A stretch of DNA of 64,000 nt from Saprospiraceae bacterium. Its GTDB lineage: Bacteria; Bacteroidota; Bacteroidia; Chitinophagales; Saprospiraceae. Position 1 is the stretch's first letter, and each line of letters begins with the position of its first letter. This document shows, one piece after another, positions 4,009-12,542 of this stretch. A program made the position numbers and the translations under genes. Under the pieces are notes generated by a model. The model worked only from the letters and a program-made list of their open reading frames with translations. It was not told the DNA's origin and did no database searches. The stretch covers positions 4,022-68,021 of the forward strand of contig JANPLH010000612.1 of NCBI GenBank assembly GCA_031426435.1. The letters run 5' to 3'.

Positions 4009-4542
4009 TTACACTAATTTGTTGTTTTGAATGAACTGCTCCACTGCCTCCGTCAGCTTCCTAAAATTGGCTGGAATCATGCTGGCCATAAATGACTCTA
4101 TCCCCTGAGCAACGAGCGGCCCCGCCATTTTGATGGGCAGTGCATTGGTTTGCCAGTGCAGTGTACCCTCAAAGCTAAGCCTACATGCCTTGCCGCCCAT
4201 GGCTGCCTCAAAGGTGGTGTTGCCAATGCAGGACATCTGCTCCTTGAAATAATGCGACCGGATTTCCCATCGGCAACTACGCTGCGCTTCCTTCCAAACG
4301 GCACTGTCTGTCCAGGTAAGCATGTCTGGTTGCACCATTTTGGCCAAAAAATCGGGAAGCGGTGGCCTTGCCTTCCACACATTGACCATCAACAAATGCC
4401 CTTCCTCATTCTCGCCGCTGCTTATCGGGCTTACGCTCTCAATGTCGGGCACCGCCGCTGCGATTTCCGGGAGGTGTCCTTGCATGGTTTCCCACACCAA
4501 TGCTGTGGGGTGCTTTACGATGGTGACGGTTCTGAATTCCAT
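4009..4542 (-). CDS. SRPBCC/START-like (polyketide-cyclase/lipid-binding fold) protein, operon gene I
   Basis: The ATG at 4542 gives MEFRTVTIVKHPTALVWETM..., the typical start of an SRPBCC domain. The ORF track extends to a TTG at 4566. The length and beta/helix pattern fit the family, but there is no catalytic assignment. Confidence 0.6.
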   Translation of the reverse strand: MEFRTVTIVKHPTALVWETMQGHLPEIAAAVPDIESVSPISSGENEEGHLLMVNVWKARPPLPDFLAKMVQPDMLTWTDSAVWKEAQRSCRWEIRSHYFKEQMSCIGNTTFEAAMGGKACRLSFEGTLHWQTNALPIKMAGPLVAQGIESFMASMIPANFRKLTEAVEQFIQNNKLV

Positions 4543-4566
4543 TGTACTTGATGGGTGATTTGACAA

Positions 4567-5631
4567 CTAATTTTTCAAAGACATGCCAAAGGATTGGCGA
4601 TGAGCATAAATCTCTGGCGACAATTCCATTTGCGACCTAATAGAAGGAGAAACATGTTCACTTGCGGCCAACCATGAAATGGCTTCTATCAGGGCTGCTT
4701 TGGCGGGTCGCCCCACATAGCCCAGTTCTTCCGCCGCTTTTTGATGACTGTACCAATAGTAGTTGCCCACCATTTTAGCCTGTTCCCTGGTAGAAATTGG
4801 GCGGTCGTTGGTCAACAGGCTCAATGCTTCCTGCAATGCAGAGGCAAGGTATGCAGCGGTATGATATACCTTCAAATAGGGACCTGGCATGCCGGTAAGC
4901 GATGAAATGAGTTGGTGAATTGCTTGCCACTCCAAGTTTTCGCCCCCCAGCAGGTAGCGTTCTCCCGACCGTCCATTTTCTGCGGCTAAAACGTGCCCCT
5001 CTGCCACATCCTGCACCGAGGCAATATTGCAACCACCTATCCACGAGGTTTTGAACAAATCTTGCAAGTAGCTGACAATGTGGTGGTTGCTCTCGGTCAG
5101 CCCATAATCATGCCCGCCCACCACCACTGTCGGATGCACAGAGACAAGTTCTACTATACCGTCTTTTGCCATTTCAAAAGCGGCATCCACTTGCCCCTTT
5201 TTCGCCAAAACATAAGCAGGCGCTGACTCGATGCTGCCAGGGTGGGCCTCGTCAAGAATACGCTGTTGGCCAGTACTGCCAAAAACAACGGACGATGAGG
5301 TGAGCACCATGCGGCACACGCCCGCCGCCTTTGCCGCCGTTATTACATGCTTCACTCCTTCTTTGGCTTCGCCAATAAGCTGCTCAGGTGGCTGCCGCCA
5401 ATAACTAAAAACGCCCGCAACGTGGAACACCCATTCACAGCCCTCCATTGCAGCCGTCAAGGTGGCAGGTTGCTGTATGTCGCCAATTGCCATTTCCACA
5501 TTTAACCCTTCCAAACTTCGCAAATCACTGGTTGGCCTTATGAGCGCTCGCACGGAATGACCCTTGGCGAGCAGCGCCTGCACGACATGGCTGCCGATAA
5601 AACCGTTTGCCCCTGTAACAAGTGCTCTCAT
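4567..5631 (-). CDS. Extended SDR, NAD(P)-dependent epimerase/dehydratase or dihydroflavonol-4-reductase/HpnA-like, operon gene H
   Basis: MRALVTGANGFIGSHVVQALLAKGHSVRALIRP is a Rossmann GxxGxxG motif. The start ATG at 5631 overlaps the stop of the upstream gene (ATGA). The ORF-track N-terminal extension is not needed. Confidence 0.85.
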   Translation of the reverse strand: MRALVTGANGFIGSHVVQALLAKGHSVRALIRPTSDLRSLEGLNVEMAIGDIQQPATLTAAMEGCEWVFHVAGVFSYWRQPPEQLIGEAKEGVKHVITAAKAAGVCRMVLTSSSVVFGSTGQQRILDEAHPGSIESAPAYVLAKKGQVDAAFEMAKDGIVELVSVHPTVVVGGHDYGLTESNHHIVSYLQDLFKTSWIGGCNIASVQDVAEGHVLAAENGRSGERYLLGGENLEWQAIHQLISSLTGMPGPYLKVYHTAAYLASALQEALSLLTNDRPISTREQAKMVGNYYWYSHQKAAEELGYVGRPAKAALIEAISWLAASEHVSPSIRSQMELSPEIYAHRQSFGMSLKN

Positions 5632-7790
5632 GGCTGGTTTTGGTTGTTCAATAAATTGATGTCCTTTTTGGCCGCTGTTGCCAGCTCTCCAAATAACTGT
5701 CTCAATGCATCTGTGGCTGGATTGCTTTCGGTACTTGGGCTGAAATGGCGGTAGCCAAGGTCGTCTTGTTGCCAACTGCCGGGTTGGCCGCTTGCTTGTC
5801 GGGAGCTATTTACCAATTTTTCCACCAAACCGGAAAGCATGTTCAATAGGCCCTTCAGCTTGTCAATTTCCGGCGGCAACATGGAGGAGGGGCCATGCCC
5901 CTCTCCGAATGCCATATCAAATGCTTTACCCACCAATGGCGACCTGCCCTCATAGCTTGCTTCGAAATTTGCCATGGTACGTGAAAAGAATCGGATGTAG
6001 GAATCGGAGACCAGTGCATCTTTCACCTTCGGCAAATAGTCTATGTTGAATACTTGCCAGAACAAGGGCAGCGCAAATTTTTGCCTTGCAACGATGGAGA
6101 CCCGCACGCCACCGGGGTCTTTGGCAAAGGTGACCATGCCATCATCAAATGTTGCCGAGTTGTTGGCACTGTGAACGGTACGCCAAAAAATCTGCTGCTG
6201 CGAAAAACCGTAACGGATGACCTCTATTTTGTCCACATCAATATACTCGCCACCAAAAAGGGCCATCCAGTTTGGTTGGGGCAGGTATATGTCCCTTTCT
6301 ACCTGATAGATGGTGCGCTGCTTTCCGTCATGTTTCACTGCCTGCCTTGCTCCGCCAATATTGTCGTACATCATTTCCACGGCACGGCTGATGTCCACCC
6401 GCTCCACAAAATCGGAATACGGCACCGGGATGATTTTGGAATATTCGAACAAAACCGAATCGTCAAGGTAGCGCCAGCAGAGTCCATTGCGGTCGGGGGG
6501 CGTATGCTTCAGGATGTTGCAAAAAGGCAGAATATAGCTTTCCACCTCCTCAAAATCTTCCGTTGAAAAACTGTTTGGGTTCACGTTCAAGGCTACCGCC
6601 TTGCGGTAAAGGCGGTCTTTGTCGTACAGTATCTGCCAGGTTTCCTGAAAATGCTGCGCTCCGGCAAGCAGGTAATTCAAGGTAACCATTCCCCAAAACG
6701 CCATCGGGTGGTCGTCAAGGTCTGTTGTCAATGGGGACAGCAGGTTATTGATTTGGCCGTCGAGGATGTTTTTGAAGGGAAACAGCGAGGTGTTTACCTG
6801 AAGCAGCCATGCCTCTGCAAGCCGCTGCGAGAGCAAGGATTCATTTCGCTTGCGGGTGGACTCCCGGACATGGATGGGCACGTTCTTCCAACCAGGATAG
6901 GGTGAAAGGTCGCCGTACAATTGGTAAGATTTGGGCAAGCCTATTTTACGCAGTGCCGCTGCGTTCAATTGCGAAGCATAGGGGTCAAGCCCCATCTTTA
7001 GGGCAGCCGCCCAATCTGCCAGCAGCAAGTGGTTGCCAGCAATGATGGTATGTGTAGCAATGGGGTTGGAGCGAAGCGTTCCCTGGCTGCCGTGATTGCT
7101 CCAATAGGCATCTATGATAGCAAAGTGAACTTCGGTGCGCTCCAACAGCCCAACCACTACCTCATTCTGCGGCAACCGGTGATGGTAGTGGTAGGTTTTT
7201 GCCCGAAGCGGCAGAATGCCGAGCAAGTTGTTCAGACCGAGGGCAAAACATTGGGCTTGGTCGGTCTTGTTTTTTGAAAAAACGATGCGAAAATGCGCTT
7301 GCAACCAATGGGACGAAACTTCCGAGTTGCGAAGTGCGCTGCCTTCGGGAAAGCCGCCGTCCATCAGCGACTCTCCAAGGTCGAGCACCTCGTATTCATT
7401 GCCGTTTGGGGTGCAAAATTGGTAGCCACAAAGGTCGGCGAGCACCATGACTTCCCGGTTTTCCAGCCATTGGCCCGAAGCCCCTTCTGCATCTGCCACG
7501 GCCACCTTGGTGTAGCCTTGCTCATGAAGCAGGTCAATCAAATGCTCTACCAAGCGGGGGTCGGTGCCAGTGGTCGCCCCGCAGTCAAAAAGCTCCAAAT
7601 CTGGCTTTATCAGAATGGCCATGTCGGGCCTTTCAACGCAGCATTGCCCCCGCACAAGTTCGAGCGCTTCCCACAAACCACCCTCCTGTAAGGCTGCTTG
7701 CAATAGCTGCACTGCCGGCTCTCTGCCAGTTTTAATGGAACAGCTAACCGTGCCTGGGATGGTTTGTGTCTTTAGTGCTCGTTTTGCCAT
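5628..7790 (-). CDS. Two-domain protein: DUF362-like N-terminal domain fused to an SRPBCC/START-like C-terminal region, operon gene G
   Basis: 720 aa. ILIKPDLELFDCGATTGTDPRLVEHLIDLLHEQGY...IIDAYWSNHGSQG...AGNHLLLADWAAALKMGLDP follows the DUF362 pattern. Residues about 400-640 have an SRPBCC-like alternation, and the tail is helical. Confidence 0.6.
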   Translation of the reverse strand: MAKRALKTQTIPGTVSCSIKTGREPAVQLLQAALQEGGLWEALELVRGQCCVERPDMAILIKPDLELFDCGATTGTDPRLVEHLIDLLHEQGYTKVAVADAEGASGQWLENREVMVLADLCGYQFCTPNGNEYEVLDLGESLMDGGFPEGSALRNSEVSSHWLQAHFRIVFSKNKTDQAQCFALGLNNLLGILPLRAKTYHYHHRLPQNEVVVGLLERTEVHFAIIDAYWSNHGSQGTLRSNPIATHTIIAGNHLLLADWAAALKMGLDPYASQLNAAALRKIGLPKSYQLYGDLSPYPGWKNVPIHVRESTRKRNESLLSQRLAEAWLLQVNTSLFPFKNILDGQINNLLSPLTTDLDDHPMAFWGMVTLNYLLAGAQHFQETWQILYDKDRLYRKAVALNVNPNSFSTEDFEEVESYILPFCNILKHTPPDRNGLCWRYLDDSVLFEYSKIIPVPYSDFVERVDISRAVEMMYDNIGGARQAVKHDGKQRTIYQVERDIYLPQPNWMALFGGEYIDVDKIEVIRYGFSQQQIFWRTVHSANNSATFDDGMVTFAKDPGGVRVSIVARQKFALPLFWQVFNIDYLPKVKDALVSDSYIRFFSRTMANFEASYEGRSPLVGKAFDMAFGEGHGPSSMLPPEIDKLKGLLNMLSGLVEKLVNSSRQASGQPGSWQQDDLGYRHFSPSTESNPATDALRQLFGELATAAKKDINLLNNQNQP

Positions 7791-7798
7791 TAGTGGTT

Positions 7799-8095
7799 TT
7801 ACTTCAGCAGGTTCTCTACCGCTTTTACCGAGGCTGTGATGGAAGCCTTGGAAAACTCAGCCTGTGCATCCAGCCAGCTTTCGGCCATGTTTCGCCACAT
7901 TGTTTCTGCGTCTTCGGTCTCTATAGTTTTTAAGCCCGCCACCTTCATGGCCGACCGTTGCACCTTCAAGCCACCGTCCATGCAGGCAGTGCAGAACCGC
8001 CTCCAATCGTCAACTGCCTGCTTGGCCTGCGGGGCAGAATGCTCGCAGTAATCCAGGATGAAGGAAGAAAATGGGTTGTTTTTGTTATTCGACAT
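7799..8095 (-). CDS. Small all-helical hypothetical protein (phasin-like composition), operon gene F
   Basis: 98 aa with an ATG start, lying 8 nt upstream of gene G. There is no TM segment or signal peptide. The amphipathic helical sequence resembles the N-termini of genes C and D. Confidence 0.55.
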   Translation of the reverse strand: MSNNKNNPFSSFILDYCEHSAPQAKQAVDDWRRFCTACMDGGLKVQRSAMKVAGLKTIETEDAETMWRNMAESWLDAQAEFSKASITASVKAVENLLK

Positions 8096-8143: not shown

Positions 8144-9367
8144 TTAAGGGCTGACAAGGTAGCTGTGGTGAAATCCCAATCGGGGGTCCGCCAATTTGCC
8201 CACTAGCGGCACGAACTCTTGTATGTCGGGCATTGGCACCCGCAGCCTTAAGCTCAGGGATGGGTAATCGTAAATTGTGATATGGTTAAGCCCCCGGTTT
8301 GCCGTGAACAACAAGCTTTGGTCTTTTGAAAGTTGGGTGGCGTGCACGGAGTCCATCAACCGGAAATGGCTGACCCGCAGCGCACCTAATATATGTTCGG
8401 TGGAGGTGAAAAGGTTTGCCCGCACCAAAACATCGTAAGCGGTGGTGGCCATGGTGCGCTTATGGTTCATCACTTCCTGCAAGTCTGGTTTTTCGTCAAT
8501 AATGCGGAATTCTGAAAAGTTTTCGAGGTTGATGAACACGATGGAATGGCTGCCGCCATTGCAAAAAATCAGCTCCGTATCAGAAATGGTAACATCAGAA
8601 TTGATATGGCAAGGCATTTCCCGCCCGCATGCCCAATGCCGTACCACCCGCTTGCTGGCGGGGTCAATTTCAAAAGCGTATTCCTTGAAAAAGGCAATTG
8701 CCCATTGGTGGTAGTCTGTATGGTGCTGCGGCAATACCCTGAACGAGACGGCGTAAAAAAGGTCCTTGACCGGGTGGTTGATCAGGTGCCAGCAAGTGGC
8801 AGGAAGGTCAATGCGGGTAGTCTCCCCGGTCTGCATGTCCAATATGCCAACCATTTTGGCCTCGCCTTTTGCGCCAAAGGCGGGATTGTCCATGGAGCCG
8901 TAACAGAGGTAGCGCCGTGATGGGGTAAACTTCATGCTGTGCGGCAGCAATACCTTGTGCGGCCCCAATTTTTCACCCTTGTCCAGCCGATTGACATTGA
9001 AGCGGTAAAAGTTTTCGCCGATGGCGGCTATGAACTCCTCGTTGCTCAGCCAGGCGATGTGGGTGCTGCCTTGTATGCTGGTATTCGGCACCTCGAAGCC
9101 GAGGGTTGATTGCCGGTGCAGTTCATCCAAGGTAAGCGGGTCGTAAAAAGCAAGGTGCTGCCCGGTGGTGCCCATGTACCCCAGTTTCCGGTCAGGGCTG
9201 ATATGAACAGCATGGCCCCCAGCCATGCCATTGAAGTATTTTATTTTAAAGGCGTAGGAATTGTCGGCGGGGTCGAAAAGGAAATTGCACACACCAGCCA
9301 AGCCCTCCAATCCATTGATGCCGTTGCCATCGAGGGCGATGTGAAATGCGTATGGATAAGTTTTCAT
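8144..9367 (-). CDS. Hypothetical His-rich protein, probable beta-propeller, operon gene E
   Basis: 407 aa with an ATG start and no signal peptide. It has repeated beta-strand-rich segments and His motifs NHPVKD, PCHINSD, SVHATQ and GFHHSY. Confidence 0.6.
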   Translation of the reverse strand: MKTYPYAFHIALDGNGINGLEGLAGVCNFLFDPADNSYAFKIKYFNGMAGGHAVHISPDRKLGYMGTTGQHLAFYDPLTLDELHRQSTLGFEVPNTSIQGSTHIAWLSNEEFIAAIGENFYRFNVNRLDKGEKLGPHKVLLPHSMKFTPSRRYLCYGSMDNPAFGAKGEAKMVGILDMQTGETTRIDLPATCWHLINHPVKDLFYAVSFRVLPQHHTDYHQWAIAFFKEYAFEIDPASKRVVRHWACGREMPCHINSDVTISDTELIFCNGGSHSIVFINLENFSEFRIIDEKPDLQEVMNHKRTMATTAYDVLVRANLFTSTEHILGALRVSHFRLMDSVHATQLSKDQSLLFTANRGLNHITIYDYPSLSLRLRVPMPDIQEFVPLVGKLADPRLGFHHSYLVSP

Positions 9368-9432: not shown

Positions 9433-10167
9433 TCAAGTTTTGGCCTTTTTTGTAGCGCTTGTTTTATTGACAGCGGCTTTTTTTGGGGTGGCTGTGCTGC
9501 TATTGGTTTCTGGTTTTTTAGCATGGACTACCAAAACAAAGGCAGTATCTTCAAACCCATCTACAATGACTTCGCAGAGATAGGTGGCTGGTTCCAGTGC
9601 AGCAGGCAGCATCACTGAAATGGTGGCTGGCACGACCTGTCCGGGTGGTATCTCAAATTGTTGTGGGTCAAAGGCAAGTCCAATATGGGCAGGTGACCCA
9701 GTATCAGCATGTACGAAACTTGTGGCCTCGAACCTGCCATATTGGGTGCCGGGTCGGCTGCTTTGCATCTGAAGGATGTTGGCGATGGTTTCGCCGGGGT
9801 GGCCTGTCATTGAGATTTGGTGGCGTTCGGCAGGGGGCGGTGGAGGTGGTGGTGGTACCGTTCTTTCCGCTGTTTGTGCAGGTTCCGCACGAGGTGTTGT
9901 TCCTTGTTGCGACAGCAAATTTGCCATACTGTTGGACCACTCAAGACCAAGGTCAATCAAGCGCTCTGTGTACTTGAGGTTCAACTGGAACAAGTCGTTC
10001 ATCCTTTGGGAAAAATTATTCCCATCAGCGCCTTTGGGCTGGTCGGACACGAGGCGTTTCATGGCCGCTGCCGAATCAGTCACCATTTGTTTATTGGCTT
10101 CCACCGACTTCTTGAAAATCCGCTCAACGTCTTTCACCCAGTCGTTTTGGCCATTTGATGTTGCCAT
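9433..10167 (-). CDS. Hypothetical protein: helical N-domain, poly-Pro linker, Ig-like beta-sandwich and Lys-rich tail; operon gene D
   Basis: 244 aa. An eight-proline run is encoded at about 9835-9860. The C-terminal part (HQISMTGHPGET...YLCEVIVDGFEDTAFVLVV) looks like a beta-sandwich. The tail is KKPETNSSTATPKKAAVNKTSATKKAKT. Confidence 0.6.
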   Translation of the reverse strand: MATSNGQNDWVKDVERIFKKSVEANKQMVTDSAAAMKRLVSDQPKGADGNNFSQRMNDLFQLNLKYTERLIDLGLEWSNSMANLLSQQGTTPRAEPAQTAERTVPPPPPPPPAERHQISMTGHPGETIANILQMQSSRPGTQYGRFEATSFVHADTGSPAHIGLAFDPQQFEIPPGQVVPATISVMLPAALEPATYLCEVIVDGFEDTAFVLVVHAKKPETNSSTATPKKAAVNKTSATKKAKT

Positions 10168-10234
10168 GTTTGTTTTTTGTTGAAAGTTGGAGGGGGTGTT
10201 GTTCTACCCCAAAACTCGAAAACCCAGAACTATT

Positions 10235-10897
10235 TCACCCCACCATACCGGGGCGCTGTTCAGGCTTTTGTTCGCAATAAAAATGGTCCTGCCAGCTTTG
10301 CCAATGCAGGAAGTATTCTTTTTCATCGAGTGGGCAGACTTCTGGCCCATTGCCGCAAGCCCTCACGTTCAATTTGAAGCAAACATTCTGGTTGACCTCA
10401 GCCTCCCGGATTACGATATCAGTCGAATAGGTATTGCCCGCTTCAAACCCCTGCATCAGGTTGACGGTCATCAGCACAGCGATGGACTGCCCCGGTTCCA
10501 GTATTACCGTGTCCCTGTTCAATAATGGTTGCATGGGAGCTGTATTTCCGTGCTGGTCAACCAATTGGCGCAACCCAATCCTGTATGTCTTGGTGGCTCC
10601 GCATTTGTTCTTGATGCTGAACGGTACTACGATGACCTCGCCCTCGCAGGCCTCCCGCACGATTTCGGCAAGGCAACGGGGAGGGCAGGTTTTCTTGGGC
10701 GGACAACAGTCACTTTGGTTTGCAGCCCTATAGGTCGGTGCAGCCATTTTGGTGTAAGCATCCCCTGCCATTTTGAGGTTGTTCTGCACCATTTGAGTCA
10801 GAAAGTCGGTGTATGCTCCATAAAATGAGGGGACCCTATTAAGAACGTTGGAAGCATCTCTCCAAAAATTGGCTTGCGGGTTTGTGGTCTCTTCCAT
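10235..10897 (-). CDS. Hypothetical Cys-rich protein: helical N-domain, CCPPKKTCPPRC linker and Ig-like beta-sandwich; operon gene C
   Basis: The ATG at 10897 gives MEETTNPQ...; the track starts at a TTG at 10927. It has 10 Cys and no signal peptide. Confidence 0.6.
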   Translation of the reverse strand: MEETTNPQANFWRDASNVLNRVPSFYGAYTDFLTQMVQNNLKMAGDAYTKMAAPTYRAANQSDCCPPKKTCPPRCLAEIVREACEGEVIVVPFSIKNKCGATKTYRIGLRQLVDQHGNTAPMQPLLNRDTVILEPGQSIAVLMTVNLMQGFEAGNTYSTDIVIREAEVNQNVCFKLNVRACGNGPEVCPLDEKEYFLHWQSWQDHFYCEQKPEQRPGMVG

Positions 10898-10977
10898 GAT
10901 GATATTGTTTTCGGTTTGGGCAGACAAGGTTGGTCAAACATTGGCAAGTCCAACAACTTAAAGCCTGCCCTCCAGTT

Positions 10978-11892
10978 TTAAGATTTTTTCTTTACCACTT
11001 TAACAGGTGGCGGCACATTAGCAGTCGGTGTAGCCGGGCGCACGGGCGCAGCGGGTTTAGGGGTGGATGAGGCTGTTGTAGTTATCGTTGAAGCTGCAGG
11101 TTTTGGCATAGGTGCAGGTTCAGGCACTGCGGGCACTATCTTGTAACTCAGGAGTTGGTCAATAATGCGGATGTCACCCTCGTAGAGCCAAGTTGGTTGA
11201 ATGTCTTTGGGCAGGGTGAAAGCAAGGTGCAACACCAGCGTTTCGCCCGGCTGTACCAACTGACCTGCTTCCCTGACCGTAACCGTAGCCCAACTGGCCA
11301 CGTCGTTTTTCATTCCTCTGATGAAAACATCAAGCGTTTCTTGCATCCCGCTTTCTTTGTCCTTGCGGAGTGCGAATGCAAGGTTTCTACAAATCAAGTC
11401 CATGTCCACGGTAGTGTTGTGCTTGATGGTTGGCACGATGACCGGGATGTTGCCTTTGTTTACCAGCAGCACCTCTTTGTTGCAGGTCTCGCCTGGTTTG
11501 GTACCGAAGAAAACAATTTCACTCGGTACCAATTCAATTTCAAGGGTTTCCTGTACTACTACCGAAATCTCCCGCTTTACACCACCAATCTCCACAGTGG
11601 AGCGGTAGGTGCCCGGTGCTGTGGATGGGTGCATGGATATGGAAAGCGTTTGGCGCCGAACCTCGCCCCCCATCAAAACAGAGTTGATGGTCAGGCCAGC
11701 TTTTGGAATGGCAACCGCAGAACGGGAACTACTCTTCGAGAAAGCCAACTCTTGAAGGAAGACTGGCTCGTTGTGGGAATTCTCCAAAGTGACGTAGCCA
11801 AGCAACGCTTGTGGCGGGCCGCTCAAGAGGATTTCTGCATCCCTGCAACCTATCTTTTCAAGCCCTTCTGCTATGAAATTTTCGGTGGTCAT
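10978..11892 (-). CDS. Hypothetical protein with two Ig/ASH/DUF1573-like beta-sandwich modules and a Pro/Ala/Thr/Lys tail; operon gene B
   Basis: 304 aa with an ATG start. SEIVFFGTKPGETCNKEVLLVNKGNIPVIV resembles ASH/DUF1573 modules. The tail is PAVPEPAPMPKPAASTITTTASSTPKPAAPVRPATPTANVPPPVKVVKKKS. Confidence 0.6.
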   Translation of the reverse strand: MTTENFIAEGLEKIGCRDAEILLSGPPQALLGYVTLENSHNEPVFLQELAFSKSSSRSAVAIPKAGLTINSVLMGGEVRRQTLSISMHPSTAPGTYRSTVEIGGVKREISVVVQETLEIELVPSEIVFFGTKPGETCNKEVLLVNKGNIPVIVPTIKHNTTVDMDLICRNLAFALRKDKESGMQETLDVFIRGMKNDVASWATVTVREAGQLVQPGETLVLHLAFTLPKDIQPTWLYEGDIRIIDQLLSYKIVPAVPEPAPMPKPAASTITTTASSTPKPAAPVRPATPTANVPPPVKVVKKKS

Positions 11893-11951: not shown

Positions 11952-12542
11952 TCACTTGGGATTGGCTTTTACTCCAACGTTCTGGTTCAAGGTCGGATTG
12001 CCAACGGTTTGGTCGGTAGTTCGTTGCGGAAAAGGCCGGGTATCTGGTTCACAGCAGATTGTCTCGCATTTCTCGTAGGCATTGGGCACGTATGGCTCAG
12101 TGATCACCTGCGATTCTCCGCTGAAGCATAGGGTCAAAACTTCCAGGCCGAGGAACTTGAGACATACTTGGTTGTAGTGCGGTATATGCATCCTTATCTC
12201 CGGCGTCAGCAAATCTTTGATGTCCTGTTTTGACAAATGGGGCAGGTTGAGCAGGTCTATCTGCGAACCAATGGGCATATTGGGGTCTCCCATTATCAAG
12301 GAAGCCACCGGGTTGTTTTTCTCGCCGGTTACGTGGGTGCCTATCGGTTGCGACTTCTCGCCAGTTACGTGGGTACCAATTGGCTGGGCCTTGTCACCAG
12401 TCACATGGGTACCTATCGGTTGCGACTTGTCGCCCCGGACATAAGTATTCACGGTCATTGGCATTGTAAAAATGGTCAAGCCAGTTCCAAAGTTGATGGA
12501 ATGGGTATAACTGGTCGGAATCTTAAGGGAAGGAGCTGCCAT
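11952..12542 (-). CDS. Hypothetical protein with five tandem 12-residue repeats (GDKSQPIGTHVT type) and a Cys-containing C-terminal domain; first gene (A) of the operon
   Basis: 196 aa with ATG at 12542. The repeats were verified codon by codon, and the C-terminus contains CETICCEPD. Confidence 0.6.
   Translation of the reverse strand: MAAPSLKIPTSYTHSINFGTGLTIFTMPMTVNTYVRGDKSQPIGTHVTGDKAQPIGTHVTGEKSQPIGTHVTGEKNNPVASLIMGDPNMPIGSQIDLLNLPHLSKQDIKDLLTPEIRMHIPHYNQVCLKFLGLEVLTLCFSGESQVITEPYVPNAYEKCETICCEPDTRPFPQRTTDQTVGNPTLNQNVGVKANPK
12255..12434 (-). repeat. In-frame 36-nt x 5 tandem repeat inside gene A
   Basis: Units are 12399-12434, 12363-12398 and 12327-12362 (near-identical peptides GDKSQPIGTHVT / GDKAQPIGTHVT / GEKSQPIGTHVT), then 12291-12326 and 12255-12290 (degenerate: GEKNNPVASLIM, GDPNMPIGSQID). 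Confidence 0.9.

Follow-up and report, generated by a model that had tools for sequence, protein, structure and literature searches.

Three adjacent genes in a Saprospiraceae bacterium encode proteins with Ig-like domains and no recognizable export signal, and the question raised by this locus is what such proteins might do together inside the cell. The genes, B, C and D, are the three consecutive minus-strand open reading frames (ORFs) in the ORF list for positions 9433-11892 of a stretch of 64,000 nucleotides (GenBank assembly GCA_031426435.1, contig JANPLH010000612.1, positions 4,022 to 68,021), referred to here as the window. They are real, conserved genes and belong to a cluster of nine closely spaced, co-directional genes, A-I, all on the minus strand. 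No published description of this cluster was found in the literature. An earlier note on this DNA, made from the letters alone, had proposed that B, C and D are a paralogous family acting as a cytoplasmic coat, adaptor or scaffold. In the reading that we tentatively favour, at a probability of roughly 40%, A-D would coat or scaffold a lipid or isoprenoid body in the cytoplasm and be tethered to a polyanion much as the phasin PhaF is.

The four genes of this cassette and their parts are listed below (nt, nucleotides; aa, amino acids).

A: 11952..12542, minus strand; 196 aa; first gene of the cassette, with a conserved N-terminus, 12-aa repeats and four invariant Cys in a conserved C-terminal domain.
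B: 10978..11892, minus strand; 304 aa; predicted tandem ASH/PapD-like beta-sandwiches and a Pro/Ala/Lys tail (residues 254-304).
B domain 1: residues 14-113, nt 11554-11853, minus strand; beta-sandwich in the AlphaFold2 model.
B domain 2: residues 119-253, nt 11134-11538, minus strand; predicted beta-sandwich with a helical hairpin insert (164-199).
C: 10235..10927, minus strand; 230 aa from the TTG at 10927, 220 aa from the probable ATG at 10897.
C parts: minus strand; head, about residues 1-55; Cys cluster, about nt 10673-10711; Ig-like body, about nt 10358-10660; then a conserved C-terminal W/H/C-rich segment.
D: 9433..10167, minus strand; 244 aa; two helices, linker, sandwich and Lys-rich tail.
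D parts: minus strand; predicted helices 7-41 and 51-86 (nt 9910-10149); Pro-rich linker 87-115; sandwich 116-216 (nt 9520-9822); tail 217-244 (nt 9436-9519).

The start of C is likely the ATG at 10897, which gives 220 aa, because of the alignment of the orthologues.

Folds, location and kinship of B, C and D

The beta-sandwich modules that the earlier note had seen at the ends of B, C and D are real. AlphaFold2 gives two in B and one in D, and the Ig-like body of C would follow from its homology to D. The D model, built on a 16-sequence alignment, has a sandwich at residues 116-216 with a predicted local distance difference test (pLDDT) score of ~85-92. In the B model (23 sequences, mean pLDDT 77.8) the sandwiches span residues 14-113 and 119-253; block pLDDT is mostly ~80-95 across the first and drops in the second where the helical insert lies. 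The disordered tails proposed for both proteins are found in the same models (residues 254-304 of B and 217-244 of D). The plan of helical head, low-complexity linker and Ig-like body, which had been extended to all three proteins, holds for C and D but not for B, which opens directly with an Ig domain. The only helices of B are those of the hairpin at residues 164-199, inside domain 2, which carries the invariant motif HNTxxDMDLICRN.

In Foldseek searches of the PDB, the top match of D was the ASH domain of CEP192 (6fvi, 6.5e-7), followed by 2ys4, 2e6j, 3qbt and 1msp. The structural neighbours of D are HYDIN PapD-like domains, the OCRL1 ASH domain, MSP/VAP and the N-domain of GH123. B matched 9ijj_C (1.1e-10; tandem ASH, ciliary central pair), 7sqc, 2qsv (7.7e-10) and CEP192 SPD-2. 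As modelled, residues 116-216 of D and the sandwiches of B belong to the ASH/PapD-like/MSP fold class, together with CEP192, Hydin and the central-pair proteins. Membership was not recovered at the sequence level, where B scored 12.6 bits against a cut-off of 25.5 for the Pfam model HYDIN_VesB_CFA65-like_Ig. The D and C families gave only weak matches to NPCBM_assoc, fn3_5 and GH123_N (fn3_5 in 5/11 members of the C family), and none of B, C and D is covered by a model in Pfam, NCBIfam, PADLOC or PHROGs. Searches of PDB sequences with the G sequence and with profiles of A, B, C, D, E, X182 and X355 (the last two from an alternative module described below) returned nothing usable, the B profile having no sequence-level match to any PDB chain.

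The ORFs of B, C and D each begin at the first start codon after a stop and are already maximal; therefore, no upstream start could supply a signal peptide. Export signals were assessed with a Kyte-Doolittle heuristic and not with SignalP. By this measure, B, C, D and ~75 members of the families of A, B, C, D and F are all free of hydrophobic N-termini and of segments resembling membrane helices (maximum 19-mer <=1.56; N-terminal 10-mer <=1.82), and a signal-like N-terminus was found in 0/122 representatives of the D superfamily. The N-terminal or lipoprotein signal of the Ig-like Bacteroidota proteins exported by the Sec pathway or the type IX secretion system (T9SS) is, by the same heuristic, missing from B, C and D. 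The earlier claim of three adjacent proteins without export signals is thus borne out, and it is from this family-wide lack of signals, and from nothing else, that we infer a cytoplasmic location for B, C and D. The accompanying premise, that beta-sandwiches in the cytoplasm are unusual, needs to be qualified, as the predicted fold is of the ASH/PapD-like/MSP type, whose eukaryotic members are cytosolic.

Pairwise BLAST detected no similarity among B, C, D and F, and nothing significant among A-G. Profile comparison with hhalign, which the earlier note had suggested for B, C, D and F, was significant for C against D (probability 96.4%, E=1.3e-9, 169 columns that take in the end of the head as well as the linker and Ig body) and for residues 16-117 of B against the D Ig domain (94%, E=1.2e-7). 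It was not significant for B against C (13%) or for F against the D or C heads (7-15% and <1%), and the tail of G gave <1% against anything in the cluster (C-terminal half compared with I, F, C and D). Judged from these profiles, C and D are true paralogues that share the plan of head, linker and Ig domain, whereas B shares only the Ig module with D, and the link between B and C runs through D only. What survives of the proposed paralogous family is therefore the pairing of C with D and of B domain 1 with the D Ig domain. The N-terminal helices of C and D are indeed alike, but F and the tail of G, which had been likened to them, were rejected by hhalign as kin of these heads, and their resemblance appears to be one of common amphipathic-helix composition.

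The heads of C and D, and F, are amphipathic, with a hydrophobic moment of z=3.3-4.7 in the window proteins (family range 1.7-7.1); for the D head z=4.1 (D family 1.8-4.5). At the opposite end, the net charge of the last 25 residues is +5 in the window D and averages +7.1 in the D family and +3.0 in the B family. The D tail is basic (net +4 or more) in 13/15 family members, and the rest of D, outside the tail, has a mean charge of -5.7. A and C have no basic tail. Basic tails are thus a family trait of D and B, and that of D is of the Lys/Ala/Pro-rich, histone-H1-like C-terminal type found in PhaF and PhaM, with putative DNA binding.

D alone had no relatives in a k-mer protein search. However, a hidden Markov model search of 1.84 billion representatives with the D profile returned 834 at E<=1e-3, 190 (clusters at 50% identity) at E<=1e-10 and 48 at E<=1e-30, the matches being mostly full-length and 200-260 aa long. 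By profile similarity, D belongs to a larger superfamily that has no name, and its few named members are called 'hypothetical protein', one being HHM05550.1 from a Gammaproteobacteria metagenome-assembled genome (MAG). Among 122 representatives, the net charge of the tail is >=+5 in 72, and weak matches to Ig families occur in 11-13. A helix-hairpin-helix domain (HHH_5) in two and a histone-H1-like HC2 domain in one, counted at any position in the protein, are consistent with putative nucleic-acid binding by the Lys-rich tail.

The A-D cassette and its partner modules

The order A-B-C-D was constant in every locus with enough sequence, and the hosts are Haliscomenobacter hydrossis, Saprospiraceae, Ginsengibacter (Chitinophagaceae), Chitinophagales MAGs and a Rhodothermales MAG. 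Relatives of B, leaving out the window protein, number 18 (42-76% identity) and include those of H. hydrossis, Saprospiraceae MAGs and Ginsengibacter; the B alignment of 23 sequences has 36 invariant columns. In samples that do not amount to a census, B was present in 3/401 genomes of the order (window genome included), and the D profile had a match in 2/401 genomes of the phylum. Searches of 24 congeners and of 40 related genomes with D alone and with E alone turned up neither protein. Mean column identity, taken over the same genomes, is 84% for E, 52% for B, 53% for C and 38% for D, and these unequal evolutionary rates point to differing constraint rather than to one recent transfer.

A has 15 orthologues and is always directly upstream of B. 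Its 12-aa repeat (G-D-x3-P-I-x-T) is present in four copies in the window and in 3-7 copies across the 15 orthologues, and the C-terminal domain with the four invariant Cys ends in CCEPDTRPFP. No Pfam, NCBIfam or PDB match was found for A. The A orthologue in G128 (L027:8659-9552) has an extra, unrelated C-terminal repeat (TDATRK-like). The alignment of the C family (11-16 sequences) has five invariant Cys and the cluster D-C-C-P-P-x3-C-P-P-x-C. One D orthologue (L020:11553-12216) is split into two overlapping ORFs and one G orthologue (L017:13831-15994) into ORFs of 414 aa and 295 aa; these could be frameshifts, decay or assembly errors.

In 16/16 loci with at least 5 kb of flanking sequence, A-D adjoins one of two modules of lipid or isoprenoid type. 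The first of these, in which E adjoins A-D in 14 loci, consists in the window of the remaining five genes of the cluster.

E: 8144..9367, minus strand; 407-aa His-rich orphan, extremely conserved; first gene of the linked enzyme-like module.
F: 7799..8095, minus strand; 98-aa amphipathic helical protein, not in every orthologous cluster.
G: 5628..7790, minus strand; 720 aa; N-terminal DUF362 domain (LarA clan) and an uncharacterised C-terminal half.
H: 4567..5631, minus strand; 354 aa; HpnA-like extended short-chain dehydrogenase/reductase (SDR), with an ATG that overlaps the stop codon of G.
I: 4009..4566, minus strand; ~177-185 aa; weakly SRPBCC-like; last gene of the cluster.

In the window and in H. 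hydrossis, A-D and E-I point the same way; in Ginsengibacter and the Chitinophagales MAGs they converge, and the gene order in G128 is E-F-G-H-I-A-B-C-D. The two groups of genes behave as separable modules. E has 12 orthologues (Saprospiraceae, Chitinophagales) with ~18 invariant His; it had no Pfam, NCBIfam or PDB sequence match and is probably a metalloenzyme. The F family comprises 6-8 sequences, and F is absent in five loci (L003, L010, L011, L012 and L021). G matches Pfam DUF362 (E=4.4e-18), a family that has been placed in the LarA clan (PMC11770544). H matches TIGR03466 (HpnA; E=1.9e-81, 273 bits, under the 367-bit cut-off), SdmB (E=6e-41) and Pfam Epimerase and 3Beta_HSD. The longest ORF for H in the window (4567-5775) begins at a TTG and overlaps G by 148 nt; the real start would be the ATG at 5631, overlapping the G stop codon (ATGA), because of the orthologue alignment and the GxxGxxG N-terminus of SDRs. 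I has sub-threshold matches to Polyketide_cyc2 (E=0.004) and DUF2505 (E=6e-4) and keeps its place as the last gene of the module in orthologous loci. The idea that the C-terminal half of G is a paralogue of I, as a START-START pair, was rejected (hhalign 0.2%).

The second module is found in two phyla, in genomes in which A-D is present and E and G are nowhere in the genome, namely G338 (Saprospiraceae, 99% complete) and G424 (Rhodothermales MAG).

Alternative module: L026:2899-8135 and L016:4001-8587, convergent with A-D; UbiE-type methyltransferase, polyprenyl synthetase, X343, X355 and X182.

The polyprenyl synthetase was recognized at E ~1e-55 to 1e-58, and the first ~105 residues of X343 are homologous to the D Ig domain (87%, E=3.9e-6). 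X355 and X182 had no Pfam match even at E<=10 and no PDB match; X182 may be SCP2-like and X355 CrtC/AttH-like. The Rhodothermales locus also holds a flavin adenine dinucleotide (FAD) hydroxylase/geranylgeranyl-reductase-like gene and a NUDIX gene. Directly upstream of A in G338, on the same strand, lie genes for a DAGAT-like acyltransferase and for a member of the fatty-acid-desaturase family (L026:11158-13181).

A scan for promoters and terminators found sites no more frequent than in shuffled sequence. A defence system or prophage was rejected, as there was no PADLOC match for A-I and no PHROGs match for A-G.

A proposed coat on a lipid body and its alternatives

How might these parts work together? 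We propose that A, B, C and D form a conserved four-gene cytoplasmic structural cassette, which would coat or scaffold whatever hydrophobic product the neighbouring enzymes make or carry, the lipid or isoprenoid modules being interchangeable. This product may be a body of isoprenoid or neutral lipid, or else a lipid-handling complex in soluble form. The amphipathic, phasin-like heads of C and D would lie on the hydrophobic surface, and the ASH/PapD-like Ig domains (two in B, one each in C and D) would make protein-protein contacts. For the Lys-rich, histone-H1-like tails of D and B, the putative partner is a polyanion, most likely nucleoid DNA, in the way that PhaF tethers PHA granules. Localisation, binding to a hydrophobic body, lattice formation and DNA binding are all putative. 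A role as coat, adaptor or scaffold, as the earlier note had it, is plausible, and is strengthened by the constant linkage to lipid modules, the phasin-like head of D and its H1-like tail. A bolder form of the proposal, in which A-D would be the shell or coat of an undescribed inclusion that stores or sequesters isoprenoid or neutral lipid, assembled from ASH-type Ig domains and phasin-like amphipathic heads and held in position on the nucleoid by the H1-like tails, with D representing a widespread superfamily of head-Ig-tail coat proteins in several phyla, seems to us doubtful.

A number of observations weigh against a coat on a lipid body. The match of D to Phasin_2 (PF09361) is sub-threshold (19.0 bits against a gathering cut-off of 24.9, E=0.0017, residues 10-87), and the D helices at 7-41 and 51-86, although long, are of low confidence in the AlphaFold2 model (pLDDT ~45-50). 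No polyhydroxyalkanoate (PHA) synthase was found in four cassette-bearing genomes (G000, G128, G338 and G424), with neither PhaC_N (PF07167) nor the class III model (TIGR01836) detected, and no squalene-hopene cyclase was found in four cassette genomes. The link to lipids is one of gene neighbourhood, X355, X182 and E carrying no assignable function and X343 being known solely for its D-like Ig domain. Furthermore, the model gives no role to A or to the invariant Cys clusters of A and C. In favour of the coat, on the other hand, sub-threshold Phasin_2 matches recur in 5/12 members of the D family and 11/122 of the D superfamily (best E=1.3e-4), and the D head is significantly amphipathic.

Two narrower identifications were rejected. 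D is not a phasin of PHA granules, given the sub-threshold Pfam score and the lack of a PHA synthase in the four genomes, and the cargo cannot be PHA for the latter reason. A hopanoid or sterol link via the HpnA-like SDR was discarded for want of a squalene-hopene cyclase.

The same neighbourhoods could be read as those of a cytoplasmic metabolon, for which B, C and D would be the soluble scaffold or adaptor, keeping the enzymes and lipid-carrier-like proteins of the neighbourhood together and shielding hydrophobic intermediates with no visible inclusion. Such an assembly would most closely resemble the soluble ubiquinone metabolon and its SCP2 and coiled-coil accessory factors. Beside the cassette there are always enzyme modules that include small putative lipid-binding proteins (I; X182); a methyltransferase of the UbiE type, a polyprenyl synthetase and an FAD hydroxylase-like gene occur in the neighbourhood, and within the alternative module a D-type Ig domain is fused to another protein (X343). 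The eukaryotic ASH and MSP domains are, moreover, protein-protein interaction modules. However, pairing with two unrelated enzyme modules fits a generic hydrophobic surface better than specific docking, and the strongly basic tails and phasin-like heads would have no obvious role. The presumed likeness of X182 to SCP2 also comes without a Pfam or PDB match, and we consider a metabolon unlikely. The tails would find their place if B and D were mainly nucleoid-associated and bound DNA via these H1-like extensions, the lipid linkage being incidental or regulatory. Lys-rich tails are kept as a property across the D superfamily, and some D relatives carry HhH or HC2 DNA-binding domains, but the cassette is rare and accessory, as the B and D-like counts among 401 genomes of the order and phylum indicate, unlike a general nucleoid protein. 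Given also that A and C have no basic tail and that linkage to lipid-type modules is kept across two phyla, which speaks against coincidence, this explanation is improbable.

A quite different possibility, equally improbable, is that B, C and D leave the cell without an N-terminal signal (by lysis, in vesicles or through an undescribed secretion system) and serve, as most Ig-like proteins of bacteria do, as extracellular or surface matrix or sheath proteins, with Cys disulfides formed outside. In its favour, H. hydrossis grows as a sheathed filament, the Cys clusters of A and C are invariant, and the bacterial structural neighbours include the secreted Porphyromonas gingivalis protein 2qsv, RbmA, chaperone-usher chaperones and the S-layer protein SbsC. 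Against this, the ~75 family members and 122 D-superfamily members have no signal peptide, lipobox-like N-terminus or T9SS-compatible architecture, the cluster contains no secretion genes and the partner genes all look like those of cytoplasmic enzymes. The cassette is also present in Chitinophagaceae and Rhodothermales, which are not known to form sheaths.

If A-D do form a coat on a lipid or isoprenoid body, they would define a new class of granule or lipid-body proteins that combine a phasin-like head, a cytosolic Ig domain of the ASH/MSP type, a fold of which the best-known cytosolic members are eukaryotic, and a nucleoid-tethering tail. They would also point to a compartment or lipid-handling assembly in the cytoplasm of Saprospiraceae, Chitinophagaceae and Rhodothermales that has so far gone unrecognised. 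The D superfamily, with at least 190 clusters (50% identity), has no Pfam model, and naming it would annotate many hypothetical proteins. As the cassette is present in the cultured H. hydrossis DSM 1100, for which there is a complete genome (CP002691, with the entire cluster at about 6.26-6.28 Mb), the idea is directly testable. Even if the proposed coat is wrong, what is left is a well-delimited, conserved cassette with confident beta-sandwich folds for B and D.

Comparison with known systems

The best structural matches to the domains of D and B are the eukaryotic ASH/MSP/PapD-like modules of Hydin, CEP192/SPD-2, OCRL1, VAP and major sperm protein. Like B and D, these are signal-less; they are cytosolic and serve protein-protein assembly. 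However, their sequence identity to B and D is 8-17%, and there is no cilium or centrosome context here; as modelled, the fold class alone is shared and common ancestry is not implied. Within the Bacteroidota, the uncharacterised protein 2qsv of P. gingivalis has tandem beta-sandwiches as in B. B differs from it, and from other bacterial PapD-like and Ig proteins, in being signal-less and in having a hairpin inside domain 2 and a basic tail.

The partner modules can be likened, by description only and as a lead, to soluble lipid-handling assemblies with START/SRPBCC or SCP2 carriers, such as Coq10 and the UbiJ/UbiK ubiquinone metabolon, in which polyprenyl lipids are handled in the cytoplasm with small carriers and a small helical accessory protein. 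The neighbouring modules described here have a polyprenyl synthetase, a UbiE-type methyltransferase, an FAD hydroxylase-like gene and a weakly SRPBCC-like protein.

For D itself, the comparison is with PhaF of Pseudomonas putida and PhaM of Ralstonia eutropha. PhaF is a granule-binding phasin joined to a nucleoid-binding, histone-like tail, and both PhaF and PhaM cover PHA granules and anchor these to the nucleoid (PMC7590123, PMC5658603). D likewise has an amphipathic N-terminal head, with weak similarity to Phasin_2, and a basic C-terminal tail. It differs from them in that an ASH-type Ig domain is predicted between head and tail, its Phasin_2 score is below threshold, and it is encoded with A, B and C beside isoprenoid and lipid genes and not beside pha genes. 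Nevertheless, by this analogy the head and tail of D suggest one end that binds a body and another that binds a polyanion.

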